Positions 1,201 to 5,599 of a stretch of DNA of 7,350 bases are shown here, in pieces (position 1 is the first letter of the stretch; each line of letters begins with the position of its first letter). The DNA is from a virus (lineage: Duplodnaviria; Heunggongvirae; Uroviricota; Caudoviricetes). A model generated the notes under the pieces. That model saw only the letters and a program-made list of their open reading frames with translations, searched no databases and was not told the DNA's origin. The translations under genes and the position numbers were made by a program. The stretch is from the IMG/VR virus record IMGVR_UViG_2698536628_000019, one strand, 5' to 3'.

Positions 1201-1253
1201 TTAACTGTTCCGCGTGCGCTGAGCCGCATTCACCGCATCACAAAATTCACTTT

Positions 1254-1311
1254 AAAAAGGGCGGCAGAGCAGCCACGGAGTAAAACTGATACCGCCAAAC
1301 GTCACCAGAAA
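1254..1311 (-). ncRNA. dicF: DicF-type small regulatory RNA (Hfq-dependent sRNA processed from the dicB operon transcript) with 3' intrinsic terminator
   Basis: Minus-strand sequence tttctggtgacgtttggcggtatcagttttactccgtggctgctctgccgccc followed by ttttt matches the E. coli DicF sequence as I recall it, with about one mismatch. The GGCGG...CCGCC stem plus U-tract forms its terminator. Flanked by YdfC-like upstream and DicB-like downstream, the canonical order. Not verified by alignment. Confidence 0.75.
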
Positions 1312-1652
1312 ATTGATAACAGAGGGCGTTGCAGCGGGGTTGTCACTTAAGCGTATGGTCAACCTGACAACCCGGTGTCCTCAACTGGGGAAGGAATAAC
1401 CCCGCCATACTTACCGCCGCGCCATTTCGCGGATTGCCACAACCGGAAGCGCACGGTCGACGAAAATTTAACGACAGGCTATCTATGAACCAGCTACCTC
1501 GCCGTGCGCTTTCGCGTTATGGTCTGACTTTTCAGGGAAATATCCTTTCAGTAAACTGTCAGTGCCGGATGCTCACCCGTGTCCGGCGCACGCACTCCAC
1601 CTCACCCGTGGAGAACTCCTTAATTACCAACCTTAGCTTCGTTGGTTAGCTA

Positions 1653-1942: not shown

Positions 1943-2299
1943 TTACTCGAGAGGAAATTGGTTATGAATACAATCAAGTTTTCTTGCCCAGAATGTGGTG
2001 GCGAAGTCTTTGACACATCCTTTAAACCGCATGGCTCTGACAGTTTCGCGGGAGCCATCTGCAAAAATTGTGGTCACCTTGTAACTGAAGATGAGTCCTC
2101 GCAGTTTGATGACGAAATCGTTGACAATATCTTCGGTGCACTCACCAGAGACTTTCTGAAGTAAAGGCGCATACCGCTTAGTTACCGCTCTGATAATTCT
2201 TACCTGTCCGGCAATGGCGCTGATATCAATATAAAGCGCCATCGCTGTTTCTTTGCTGATCCCTGGATGCCTTCCATTCTGATGTTTGACTTCGCCCAC
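1943..2299 (-). CDS. Alternative antisense ORF (118 aa, GTG start), probably a shadow ORF
   Basis: Track ORF 1943-2299 (-). GTG start with AGAGGA ~8 nt upstream and correct orientation for the left operon, but it contains five rare Arg codons (AGG/AGA/CGA) and no recognisable family features. Listed only because orientation fits the operon. Confidence 0.2.
   Translation of the reverse strand: MGEVKHQNGRHPGISKETAMALYIDISAIAGQVRIIRAVTKRYAPLLQKVSGECTEDIVNDFVIKLRGLIFSYKVTTIFADGSRETVRAMRFKGCVKDFATTFWARKLDCIHNQFPLE
1964..2164 (+). CDS. Small zinc-ribbon protein (66 aa, CxxC-x25-CxxC, acidic C-terminus), function unknown
   Basis: Track ORF 1958-2164 (+). Most plausible start is ATG 1964 with GAGGAAA SD at 1951-1957, spacing 6. 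Two CxxC pairs (CPECGG ... CKNCGH). Codon usage looks ordinary. Overlapped in antisense by the 118-aa ORF 1943-2299, so one of the two is probably not real. Confidence 0.45.
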   Translation: MNTIKFSCPECGGEVFDTSFKPHGSDSFAGAICKNCGHLVTEDESSQFDDEIVDNIFGALTRDFLK

Positions 2300-2577: not shown

Positions 2578-2880
2578 ATGAAGATTATCTCAGTTAAAAC
2601 ACTCAGGGATTTTTGGGCGGAGAATCCTGATGCAGAACAACCGCTAAGGGCATGGGTGGATGAGGCGGCAAAAGCTGACTGGAAAAGCCCAGCAGACATT
2701 AAGGCACAATACCGAACGGCCAGTATATTGAAAAACCGGCGCGTGGTATTCAACATAAAAGGTAATCATTACCGTTTAATTGTTGCAATTGCGTATCAGC
2801 GAGGATGGGTATTTGTTAAATTCATCGGAAACCACAAGGAATACGATGCTATTGATGCTGATACCATCGAACTGGAGTAA
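2578..2880 (+). CDS. higB: Type II toxin, HigB family (RelE/ParE-fold mRNA interferase), 100 aa
   Basis: Track ORF 2533-2880 begins at TTG; first ATG in frame is 2578 (MKIISVKTLRDFWAENPD...). C-terminal segment VVFNIKGNHYRLIVAIAYQRGWVFVKFIGNHKEYD matches the recalled E. coli HigB/YgjN motif (VFNVGGNELRVVAMVFF...HKEYD). Toxin-first order with antitoxin 2 nt downstream. Confidence 0.8.
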   Translation: MKIISVKTLRDFWAENPDAEQPLRAWVDEAAKADWKSPADIKAQYRTASILKNRRVVFNIKGNHYRLIVAIAYQRGWVFVKFIGNHKEYDAIDADTIELE

Positions 2881-2882
2881 GC

Positions 2883-3242
2883 ATGAACATCAAACCTATT
2901 CGTACAGAGCAAGATTATGAAGCCGCGTTGCGTGCTGTTGAACCCATGTTCGACAATGAGCCCGAAATTGACACGCCTGAGGGGGATTTTTTTGAGGTGA
3001 TGTGTTTGCTAATAGAGGAATATGAAAAAAAACATTATCCCATTGAGCCACCATCCCCAATTGAAGCTATAAGATTTCGCATGGAACAGCAGGGGCTGAC
3101 TGTGAAAGATTTGGAACCCGCAATTGGGAAAAAAAATCGGGTTTATGAGGTGTTGAATGGTACCAGAAGCCTTACGTTACCAATGATTCGCCGTCTTCAT
3201 AATCAATTTGGTATCCCCCTGGAAAGCCTGGTTGGATTATAA
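2883..3242 (+). CDS. higA: Type II antitoxin, HigA family (C-terminal XRE-type HTH), 119 aa
   Basis: Track ORF 2883-3242. SD GGAG at 2873-2876. C-terminal HTH region GLTVKDLEPAIGKKNRVYEVLNGTRSLTLPMIRRLHNQFGIPLESL resembles recalled E. coli HigA/YgjM. Starts 2 nt after the higB stop. Confidence 0.8.
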   Translation: MNIKPIRTEQDYEAALRAVEPMFDNEPEIDTPEGDFFEVMCLLIEEYEKKHYPIEPPSPIEAIRFRMEQQGLTVKDLEPAIGKKNRVYEVLNGTRSLTLPMIRRLHNQFGIPLESLVGL

Positions 3243-3687: not shown

Positions 3688-3807
3688 CCCTCGTAAACTA
3701 GTTCCGCGATCCTACAGAAAAAATTGATAAGTGGCATTACAAATAGAAGTTGAAATTTAAATTTAAATTTGTAATTATCGGTGTCATCGTAAAGTTCGGA
3801 GGGAAAC
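3688..3807. promoter_or_regulatory. Repressor/cro intergenic switch region: divergent promoters with operator-like inverted repeats
   Basis: 9-bp inverted repeat ATTACAAAT (3735-3743) / ATTTGTAAT (3766-3774) separated by 22 bp. Tandem AAATTT x3 (3752-3769). Rightward candidate promoter TTGAAA (3749-3754), 17 bp, AATTAT (3772-3777). GGAGGG SD before ATG 3808. Confidence 0.55.
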
Positions 3808-4068: not shown

Positions 4069-4502
4069 AAATCAAGCATGAGCACATCCGCATGGCGATG
4101 AATGCGTGGCTGCTTTATCCGAGGGTAGGGCGCAAAAAAATCGCTGATGATATAGCGACAGCATATTTTGAGCTTGAAATGACTTATCCACCAATGCATG
4201 ACACCTCTACGACAGAGGGTATTGGATTGAACATACAAAATATTTTTCGCTGGCTTGAAAAGGATACGCCTGATGCTGTTGAAAAAATTCAGGCACTAAT
4301 TCCAGCTATCCTGACTGTTCTTCCGCGTGAACTGCGTTATCACCTCAGTATTTTTGACACTGTTGAGCGCCGTGCATTACTGGCGGCCCAGGAAGCGTTG
4401 AGCACGGCAATTGATGCGCATGATGATGCAGTCCAGGCAGTTTACCGGAAAGCGTATTTCAGCGACGGCGGGTCATCCGGCGAGTCTGTTGTGGTGCATT
4501 GA
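4065..4502 (+). CDS. ydaT: YdaT-like protein (CII-like regulator family, 145 aa)
   Basis: Track ORF 4065-4502. Starts MKIKHEHI... and carries the segment KIQALIPAILTVLPRELRYHLSIFDTVERRALLAAQEALSTAIDAHDDAVQAVYRKA, which I recognise from Rac-prophage YdaT. Translationally coupled to the Cro-like gene (start overlaps stop). Confidence 0.75.
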   Translation: MKIKHEHIRMAMNAWLLYPRVGRKKIADDIATAYFELEMTYPPMHDTSTTEGIGLNIQNIFRWLEKDTPDAVEKIQALIPAILTVLPRELRYHLSIFDTVERRALLAAQEALSTAIDAHDDAVQAVYRKAYFSDGGSSGESVVVH

Positions 4503-4588
4503 TATTTATGCCAGACCCCTGCTGATTCTGTTGATTGGGGAATCACAGAATATCACCAGAGGATGGTTCGTCACAAGATGAGGCAATT

Positions 4589-5599
4589 ATGGCCGCATTA
4601 CCATACATGCAACTGTACATAGCTGATTACCTGGCTGACACCATGCATTTGTCCGCAGAGGAGCACGGTGCGTATTTGTTGCTGATGTTCAATTACTGGC
4701 AAACAGGGAAACCAATACCTAAAAACAGGCTGGCAAAAATTTCCCGTCTGACTAACGAGCGATGGGCTGATGTGGAACCATCCTTGCGGGAGTTTTTTTG
4801 CGATAACAGCGATGAATGGGTGCATCTTCGGATTGAGGAAGATCTGGCATCAGTCAGGGAAAAATTGACCAAAAAATCAGCCGCCGGAAAAGCATCTGTT
4901 CAGGCCAGAAGAAGCAGAAAGGAAGCATATGTTCAAACAAAACAAGAGAGAGATTTAACAGGTGTTCAAACAAATGTTGGTGTTGTGTTTGAACATGACG
5001 CAAACACAAAAGCAACTAATAAAGATACAGATCTAAAAGAATTAAACCCCACACATAACGTGCGTGAACGCGAGAGTATTCCGACCAGTGAGTCGCATGG
5101 TGCGCCGTTGCAGACAGCCGAACCTGAATACCTGGACGGCCTGAGCGAACCGATCGGGAAATTTTCGATGACTACTGTCTGGCAGCCGTCGCCGGATTTT
5201 CGACAACGGGCAGCAGTGTGGGGTATGGCTCTGCCTGAGCCGGAATTTACACCTGCTGAGCTTGCCGCATTCCGGGATTACTGGATGGCGGAGGGGAAGG
5301 TTTTCACGCAGGTTCAGTGGGAGCAGAAATTTGCCCGCCACGTGCAGCACGTCAGGGCACAGGTAAAACCAGTCAGCAAGGGGGTAAGCCATGCAGCATC
5401 AGGTGGCACGGCATCACGGGCAGTTCAGGAAATCCGGGCAGCACGCGAACAGTGGGAACGTGAAAACGGATTTATCAGCAACGGAAACGGCCTGGAAGCT
5501 GTGGGAGCTTATGGGGGAGGTGTATTCGAACCGCTGGACTCAGAAGAACGGGGCCGCACCTTCGAAGCTCTGGATTGCCCAGATTGGTGCGATGACTGA
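4589..5599 (+). CDS. ydaU: YdaU-like replication-associated protein: N-terminal DUF1376, C-terminal DnaT-like domain (337 aa from ATG 4589)
   Basis: Track ORF 4535-5599 begins at TTG; ATG 4589 with GAGG SD gives MAALPYMQLYIADYLADTMHLSAEEHGAYLL..., the DUF1376/YdaU signature. Segment GKFSMTTVWQPSPDFRQRAAVWGMALPEPEFTPAELAAFRDYWMAEGKVFTQVQWEQKFARH matches the recalled DnaT C-terminal domain ([29 protein letters not shown]...[20 protein letters not shown]). Confidence 0.85.
   Translation: MAALPYMQLYIADYLADTMHLSAEEHGAYLLLMFNYWQTGKPIPKNRLAKISRLTNERWADVEPSLREFFCDNSDEWVHLRIEEDLASVREKLTKKSAAGKASVQARRSRKEAYVQTKQERDLTGVQTNVGVVFEHDANTKATNKDTDLKELNPTHNVRERESIPTSESHGAPLQTAEPEYLDGLSEPIGKFSMTTVWQPSPDFRQRAAVWGMALPEPEFTPAELAAFRDYWMAEGKVFTQVQWEQKFARHVQHVRAQVKPVSKGVSHAASGGTASRAVQEIRAAREQWERENGFISNGNGLEAVGAYGGGVFEPLDSEERGRTFEALDCPDWCDD

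Follow-up and report, generated by a model that had tools for sequence, protein, structure and literature searches.

The ydfC–dicF spacer of a lambdoid prophage is the DicF precursor region and contains a conserved, covarying RNA fold

We analysed a stretch of viral DNA of 7,350 nucleotides (nt; Caudoviricetes; IMG/VR record IMGVR_UViG_2698536628_000019; hereafter the window), focusing on the spacer between ydfC and the gene for the small RNA (sRNA) DicF, which occupies positions 1311/1312–1652 (about 342 nt) and is transcribed from the minus strand, as are the RNA elements described below. The spacer is very probably the ordinary ydfC–dicF intercistronic region, that is, the ydfC 3′ untranslated region (UTR), of a prophage dicBF-type early-left operon, and forms the upstream half of a DicF maturation cassette. 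The evidence consists of identity to the K-12 locus, the published 190-nt and 53-nt DicF species with the nucleases on which they depend, and conservation together with covariation of both a long RNA duplex and a 116-nt structured domain that lie within the spacer. Escherichia coli E2865 has a lambdoid prophage with 100% identity to the window; in what follows, L001 denotes the K-12 record and L002 the unmasked E2865 record, and other labels of this type denote related loci.

In the K-12 genome (NC_000913), the end of ydfC at 1649041 and the start of dicF at 1649382 leave a spacer of 340 nt which is colinear end to end with the 342-nt spacer of the window; the two differ by seven substitutions and one 1-nt indel (~97–98% identity). 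An original prediction, made from the letters of the window, had taken the K-12 spacer to be much shorter, which the alignment shows to be wrong. Its corollary, that the window carries extra RNA elements relative to K-12, is refuted by the same length and the ~97–98% identity in canonical Qin; moreover, the spacer is present in most E. coli genomes, a 700-nt query around it finding a match in 4592 of 5426 complete genomes and being covered over at least 80% of its length in 3002. Length and sequence are thus essentially those of Qin, yet a conserved structure does exist. The proposal that the spacer contains RNase III/RNase E processing determinants, or gives rise to an additional RNA species, was right in kind, although such processing had already been published and is carried by features other than those flagged.

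DicF itself is readily located. The Rfam model RF00039 (52 nt) matches positions 1310–1259 (75 bits, E = 1e-15), comprising the seed region and terminator hairpin, and the 53-nt form of K-12 corresponds to 1311–1259. The match is confined to 1310–1259 and no part of 1311–1652 belongs to the family model; the spacer is a precursor flank, not DicF proper. Searches of positions 1201–2600 against Rfam, at gathering thresholds and at E up to 5, returned DicF only, with no match to STnc100 or to any riboswitch or leader.

K-12 makes two DicF species, of 190 nt and 53 nt (PMC10448788), in confirmation of Faubladier et al. 1990, the paper quoted for how RNase III and RNase E process DicF; knowledge of this processing goes back to 1990, with a re-confirmation in 2023 (PMC10448788). 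The 190-nt species is lost without RNase III and builds up on inactivation of RNase E (Ragunathan et al. 2023; PMC10448788), whilst the 5′ end of the 53-nt species is RNase E-dependent; the RNase III cut was mapped ‘between positions 813 and 814’, and no internal promoter was found (PMC10448788). With these two species and the mapped cut, the spacer is the known, canonical and already characterised DicF precursor region, and the conserved fold reported here is the only new detail. Our promoter scan agrees with the published lack of an internal promoter: it revealed no sigma-70-like site within the spacer, the sole minus-strand candidate being a PL/dicBp-like site at 2509–2481 (TTGACC-17-TAAATT).

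The longest and best-supported helix of the spacer, which does not appear in the original prediction, is formed by 1522–1499 (CCAUAACGCGAAAGCGCACGGCGA) with 1460–1437 (UCGACCGUGCGCUUCCGGUUGUGG). It contains 23 pairs with two one-base bulges (z = -3.5; 0/200 shuffles as stable), and each of the 95 distinct upstream contexts is predicted to form an equivalent duplex, with energies of -22 to -38 kcal/mol. At least four sequence versions of the duplex occur with pairing kept (GAAAGCGCAC/GUGCGCUUCC, UGAGAGCAUU/AGUGCUCUCU, UGAGGGCAUUU/AAGUGCUCUCA and GUAAGAGCAUUCC/GGAAUGCUCUUUC). A distance of 190 nt from the DicF 3′ end (1259) leads back to position 1448, whilst counting 813/814 from the K-12 dicBp start leads to window positions 1444–1448, when that start is taken as ~7 nt past TTGACC-17-TAATCT at L001 2403–2431, as read by eye. 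By this arithmetic the RNase III end lies at 1444–1448, ~137 nt upstream of the DicF 5′ end and within the 23-bp duplex. Since both estimates of the cut fall in the middle of the 3′ arm, the duplex is probably the RNase III substrate.

The last seven nucleotides of the duplex 3′ arm are at the same time the first strand of a conserved 116-nt domain (1443–1328), delineated by covariation and a covariance model, which makes up the body of the 190-nt DicF. In the proposed fold, helix P1 pairs GUUGUGG (1443–1437) with CUGCAAC (1334–1328); P2 pairs 1432–1428 with 1421–1417; P3 pairs 1403–1400 with 1390–1387 and carries a pyrimidine-rich loop (1399–1391); and P4 pairs 1373–1365 with 1345–1337. A pseudoknot is formed by GUAUGG (1410–1405) with CCAUAC (1358–1353), the second strand being located in the P4 loop. 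The minimum free energy (MFE) fold of the isolated domain is P1–P4. P4 consists of an exact 9-bp inverted repeat that the original prediction had pointed out, ending 25–26 nt from the DicF 5′ end, plus a 3-bp extension; this repeat therefore proved to be a helix of a conserved structure, whereas the two hairpins and the duplicated 10-mer reported with it proved not to be conserved (see below).

Support for the fold comes from two alignments. In a MAFFT alignment of 30 variants, 93.2% of the cells pair, compared with 31–52% when the partners are slid, and ten pairs are changed on both sides, compared with 3.1 +/- 1.3 in shuffles (0/500). In a model-based alignment of 40 variants the corresponding values are 94.3% paired versus 36–61% slid, with eight double-change pairs versus 2.2 in shuffles. 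Five double-change pairs lie in P4 (for example, GGGUAACCA/UGGUUACCC in Izhakiella); the P3 hairpin is maintained across at least eight different stems, with the UCCUU/CUCC motif of its loop retained; and one pseudoknot pair passes from U-A through U.G to C-G. In total, 72 distinct variants of the domain were collected, and the covariance model built on it (R1) finds one copy per locus.

These features suggest a maturation pathway in three steps. In the long transcript, 1522–1499 would pair with 1460–1437 (~23 bp) and RNase III would cut at ~1444–1448, generating the 5′ end of the 190-nt DicF. Because GUUGUGG (1443–1437) is both the end of this duplex and the 5′ strand of P1, the two pairings are mutually exclusive; the cut would free this strand to pair with CUGCAAC (1334–1328), and we infer that a strand exchange at GUUGUGG closes the pseudoknotted four-helix domain. 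The domain would form the 5′ two-thirds of the 190-nt DicF, where it most likely acts as a scaffold, such that the long form would be stabilised and the RNase E site displayed between two stable structures. Finally, RNase E would cut the AU-rich single-stranded linker (1327–1312; GCCCUCUGUUAUCAAU) between 1312 and 1311, seventeen nucleotides after P1, to give the active 53-nt DicF; the start of the K-12 dicF annotation aligns at the end of this linker. The sequence at 1313–1309, AU/UUU (the slash marking the cut), fits the RNase E motif RN/WUU. Taken together, the fold and the cleavage site provide a concrete structural model for DicF maturation.

Of the 138 loci, 134 have a terminator no more than 150 nt after the domain, with an intervening linker or seed of at least seven types. 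A constant domain followed by a variable linker and seed is the pattern that would be expected of a processed sRNA family with a common 5′ chassis and variable seeds. In the MFE structure of the 193-nt RNA, the junction GGCGGUA pairs with the 3′ strand of the terminator; this pairing was dropped as a general mechanism because the terminator in phage P1 is unrelated.

Some related leaders have additional features around these elements. In L161 (~4690–4760), L164 (~2560–2640), L155 and L045, the domain is followed by a terminator that forms a long hairpin with a Shine-Dalgarno sequence and a start codon in its loop; the tiny open reading frame (ORF) that starts there crosses the 3′ half of the stem and the U-tract, its peptide is not conserved, and the arrangement resembles a translation-sensitive attenuator. 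In the long-type leaders of L161 (Erwinia; 4390–4560), L164 (Izhakiella; 2253–2382) and L045, the duplex encloses two hairpins resembling tRNA T-arms (GCAGG-UUCAAUU-CCUGC and GUCCG-UUCAAUU-CGGAC). The same ~130-nt piece is found in Salmonella phage SPN1S (L172 2501–2630), at an unrelated place, adjoining a tRNA gene (2627–2700).

The domain is not restricted to DicF loci, and its conservation extends far more widely than that of the remaining sequence. It is found with 79–90% identity in phages without Rfam-detectable DicF, namely cdtI, Stx2c phages and P1/P7-like phages, and pattern scans place it in at least 120 viral contigs as well as in prophages of E. albertii, E. ruysiae, Shigella, Citrobacter, Trabulsiella, Erwinia and Izhakiella; about half of the pattern matches in genome contigs were chance matches in GC-rich genomes and were discarded. 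A match in Actinobacillus phage pPE4 was not counted as spread to Pasteurellaceae, because this phage looks like an Escherichia-type Rac/Qin-like prophage. The clearest comparison is with the ban leader of phage P1, whose ‘dicF-like region’ (NC_005856, 68791–68892) has the same domain (covariance model score 90 bits) followed by a terminator, with compensatory changes in P4 and in the pseudoknot. Unlike the domain of the window, that of the ban leader is promoter-proximal, lying ~30 nt past the C1-controlled Pban promoters; the P1 locus has no GUUGUGG strand and no RNase III duplex, its terminator is different, and it gives no Rfam DicF match.

The fold also resembles that of a second element, which lies downstream of DicF. 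Matches in the unmasked E2865 record and in K-12 identify positions 1258–1201 as the start of an STnc100-like element that continues into a run of Ns at 1097–1200. STnc100 (RF02076) matches at full length in E2865 (L002 7640–7849; 37.7 bits) and in K-12 (L001 3433–3642), with scores of 34–38 bits relative to a gathering score of 47. The 104 Ns of the window stand for 176 nt in the otherwise identical E2865 record, so the length of the masked run is not preserved; it hides the core of the element, the dicB ribosome-binding site and the first ~20 dicB codons, and dicB consequently runs from inside the run to its stop at 971–969. In K-12, the downstream element (L001 3436–3612; window 1201–1258) is closed by a duplex of ~20 bp or more, GUGAAUUUUGUGAUGUGGUG with CACUGCAUCACAAAAUUCA, which partly covers the dicB Shine-Dalgarno region. 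A published RNase III cut makes the 3′ end of a 72-nt DicF; the closing duplex lies where this cut is to be expected and is probably its site.

STnc100-like elements, which we call class II, share with the domain (class I) a closing stem, a 4-nt spacer with AAU at its end, a hairpin of 5 bp whose loop is 6 nt long, a hairpin that varies, and a junction which pairs with the loop of a later hairpin, the last by way of different sequences. These first five elements of the STnc100 architecture were recognised by inspection and by duplex prediction in 7/7 sequences; the last STnc100 hairpin, CCNGG-AGGCA-CCNGG, is missing from the domain. ST64B and a Klebsiella phage carry a different element in the slot of the domain, with shared flanks (GUGCUCUCUUCGUUGUGGU...CACCACAAC) and then the same terminator region, and the ST64B element gives a sub-threshold match to RF02076. 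The domain has no STnc100 score at E up to 5, and model R1 has no match on STnc100-like elements; on the grounds of architecture and synteny, it is a probable distant relative of these elements rather than a member of the family. A 2026 preprint ties STnc100 to the PasD sRNAs and leaves DicF unmentioned. Phage P1 (L004 3342–3461) has a second element, of the STnc100-like class II, ~1.3 kb downstream of its class I domain and between upl and tciA, scoring 33 bits, which is below threshold. In the DicF literature examined, there appears to be no description of the conserved fold, of its occurrence outside DicF loci or of its STnc100-like resemblance, and a full-text literature search with the P4-loop sequence found no paper.

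Several observations weigh against the reading of the domain as a scaffold within the DicF precursor, or temper its support. Folded in isolation, the domain does not exceed shuffled sequence in stability (z = -0.35). The patterns used to retrieve homologues fix parts of J2/3 and of the P4 loop, so that the invariance of these columns is partly by construction, and the shuffle statistics are inflated because many of the sequences are close relatives. Covariation in the pseudoknot amounts to one independent double change, in the P1 phage lineage, together with wobble intermediates. The position of the RNase III cut rests on counting, and ‘190 nt’ is a gel estimate. The domain is also present where no RNase III duplex is needed, as in the P1 ban leader, and the near-invariance of its loops and junctions across distant phages, which exceeds that of the DicF seed, suggests that it is more than a passive scaffold.

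The last two points invite the alternative that the 116-nt domain is an autonomous functional RNA, acting by binding to a conserved partner from host or phage or through a second seed in the P3 loop, and that it is the selected unit, with the DicF seed as exchangeable cargo and with different linker-plus-terminator modules joined to it in different phages. We regard this as possible, though with appreciably less than an even chance. In its favour are the occurrence of the domain without Rfam-detectable DicF in the cdtI, Stx2c and P1/P7-like phages (so close to Pban in P1) and in prophages of Citrobacter, Trabulsiella, Erwinia and Izhakiella; the contrast between near-invariant loops and junctions and a downstream linker or seed of so many types; the survival of the UCCUU/CUCC motif of the P3 loop through many changes of stem; and a paralogous STnc100-like element of the same architecture, located 3′ of DicF and, in ST64B and the Klebsiella phage, in the slot of the domain, STnc100 and PasD having been reported as Hfq-associated sRNAs. 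On the other side, no partner or target was identified, some of the column conservation is forced by the search patterns, and published data show the domain only as part of the DicF precursor. An autonomous RNA would be compatible with the precursor reading, not exclusive of it. In a wider form of this idea, the domain and the RNase III stem would constitute an unclassified family of phage structured RNAs, older and more widely spread than DicF, paralogous to STnc100-like elements and with a function of its own, for instance the binding of a conserved host factor or a second seed in the P3 loop, whilst DicF would be one of several exchangeable 3′ seed-and-terminator modules used in lambdoid and P1-like early operons; this we offer as a tentative proposal and think rather doubtful.

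Other roles for the structure are considerably less probable than that of a precursor. The domain might be a cis-acting leader that controls read-through of the terminator, either as a put-like antiterminator or as a ligand- or temperature-sensing attenuator, and thereby sets the expression of dicB and the early-left genes. The nearly constant terminator after the domain, through which the downstream genes are reached, would suit such a leader, as would the coexistence of terminated and read-through transcripts in K-12 (PMC10448788) and the attenuation-like terminators of the Erwinia, Izhakiella and Trabulsiella types, where a tiny, non-conserved ORF has its Shine-Dalgarno sequence and its start codon in the loop. 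HK022 put is similarly a structured RNA in a lambdoid early transcript upstream of terminators, but put RNAs are ~70 nt long with two stem-loops, a different architecture, and a search of the HK022 (putL, putR) and lambda genomes with model R1 gave zero matches; the put-like antiterminator was rejected on this basis. Together with the absence of any Rfam riboswitch or leader match at E up to 5, the variable distance and sequence between domain and terminator, and the lack of a conserved alternative pairing with the terminator in P1, this makes control of read-through improbable; the conserved RNase III stem further argues for a released RNA.

A similarly low probability attaches to the idea that the structure passively protects 340 nt of untranslated RNA from Rho and RNases, allowing transcription to reach dicF and dicB. 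The spacer is indeed untranslated, judging from the ORF list and Pfam, and with DicF the whole spacer folds better than its shuffles (z = -2.5); passive protection leaves unexplained, however, the sequence-invariant loops, the conserved pseudoknot and the promoter-proximal conservation in P1, and the 5′ third of the spacer, with the same need for protection, is freely replaced. Coding function can be set aside with near certainty, for an intact gene as for a recently decayed one. The original prediction had seen no credible ORF in this ~340-bp interval and was correct: mechanical ORF calling gives a 71-aa, TTG-initiated frame on the plus strand and others of 31–37 aa, none of which has a Pfam match. 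A few phage records annotate hypothetical proteins across the spacer, but in nearly all RefSeq genomes only ydfC is annotated under this stretch. Near-identical copies differ by one-base length polymorphisms inside the domain (CCCC, CCCCC, CCCCA) and by a 29-nt upstream deletion, and substitutions track base-pairing, not codon positions. The protein-coding reading was rejected on the ORF list, the Pfam result and these frame-breaking indels.

The 5′ third of the spacer (1652–1533) is a variable mosaic which is replaced, rearranged or absent in related loci. In the window it contains a hairpin just past the ydfC stop codon (1649–1644/1632–1627), the two hairpins that had attracted attention originally, and a weak hairpin (1562–1558/1528–1524). 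Hairpin 1 (1613–1595; CUCCAC-GGGUGAG-GUGGAG) has the stem originally described, 1613–1608/1600–1595, and is stable (-10.3 kcal/mol, z = -2.9). Hairpin 2 (1589–1562) has a core stem of GCCGGA (1587–1582) with UCCGGC (1569–1564), its originally described span adding one flanking pair and a mismatch, and it folds no better than shuffles (z = -0.4). The 10-mer CTCACCCGTG was correctly reported as duplicated, with exactly two copies versus 0.02 expected; one copy is in hairpin 1 (1610–1601), and the other, in the loop of hairpin 2, is at 1581–1572, one position away from where it had first been placed.

The non-random repeat, the stability of hairpin 1 and the persistence of the hairpin 2 stem in several alleles could suggest that the two hairpins and their 10-mers are a functional unit, serving as a repeat for protein binding, as an extra sRNA or as a processing signal. 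Across 143 related loci, however, no covariation or conservation supports such a unit, and both hairpins with two exact 10-mers are kept in only 27. K-12 has one mismatch in the hairpin 2 copy; the hairpin 1 stem is broken in L166, an allele of 84% identity, and in others an unrelated hairpin stands in its place; and, where the hairpin 2 stem is retained, its loop differs (CACGGAUAAGAA and others). Two alleles from viral contigs (L006 and L117) have lost exactly the 29 nt between the 10-mer copies (corresponding to window 1581–1610), as expected of slippage or recombination between direct repeats. Some alleles have wholly different upstream sequence with everything downstream kept, partial matches in other E. 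coli start at varied points within the spacer, and in some loci ydfC is swapped for another gene while the spacer remains. A functional unit here is thus very unlikely, and the suggestion that the 10-mer is a protein-binding repeat found no support; the two hairpins and the 10-mer are a variable feature of the allele and are not needed for the DicF maturation scheme. At the upstream border of the conserved leader, several spacer alleles have a 37-nt motif, GAUCCACCGAGCCUGAUGUGGUUAAAAGACAGGCACA, that is 95–97% identical across lambda (NC_001416 34394–34430), P22, HK620, L164 (2216–2252) and many others. Its position, on the opposite strand and immediately upstream of sieB, makes it the probable sieB promoter region.

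The surroundings of the spacer are those of an early-left operon, the order along the minus-strand transcript being a cI/DicA-like repressor region, the PL/dicBp-like promoter candidate, ydfC, the spacer, DicF and dicB. The ydfC coding sequence (1871–1653), the upstream cistron of the operon transcript, is a 72-aa ORF annotated as ydfC both in the identical E2865 record and in K-12. A gene for a putative zinc-binding protein of the ECs_2282 family (1964–2164, plus strand) is antisense to the transcript from PL to ydfC and stands where K-12 Qin has ydfA and ydfB. The cI-like repressor gene (3687–3289, minus strand) and the PL-like promoter are separated by a HigB-family toxin gene (2578–2880, plus strand) and a helix-turn-helix antitoxin gene (2883–3242, plus strand), a pair that, as annotated in the identical E2865 record, points against the early-left transcript. 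AT-rich motifs (ACAAATTAAAATTTA / TAAATTTGTAATT; AAATTTAAATTTAAATTTGTAATT) recur on either side of the repressor region, at 2480–2540 and 3735–3785, and look like left and right operator sets; the promoter candidate at 2509–2481 overlaps the left set. ARAGORN detected no tRNA or tmRNA in the window.

A conserved, covarying fold and a processing stem in the non-seed part of the 190-nt DicF may be of interest to sRNA and phage biologists, and the sharing of the fold with the P1 ban leader and other early-left leaders, together with the STnc100-like resemblance, raises the possibility that long DicF has a role of its own. Among known systems, the closest is the Qin dicBF operon, with its 190-nt DicF and ydfC–dicF UTR (Faubladier et al. 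1990; Balasubramanian et al. 2016; Ragunathan et al. 2023): the locus is the same, sequence and length are nearly so, and the same RNase III (190-nt) and RNase E (53-nt) products are to be expected here. The window differs in belonging to another lambdoid prophage, in lacking ydfA/ydfB, and in that the HigBA pair and a zinc-ribbon gene separate the repressor from ydfC. The published accounts of dicBF that we examined give the cleavages, but neither the duplex nor the way in which the 137-nt 5′ part folds, nor conservation outside DicF loci. SroC, CpxQ and SdhX, sRNAs derived from operon transcripts or 3′ UTRs, likewise arise by early termination and RNase E trimming of the 5′ end; unlike in these, the RNase E step of DicF is preceded by an extra RNase III step and by a structured 5′ domain that is large and conserved.

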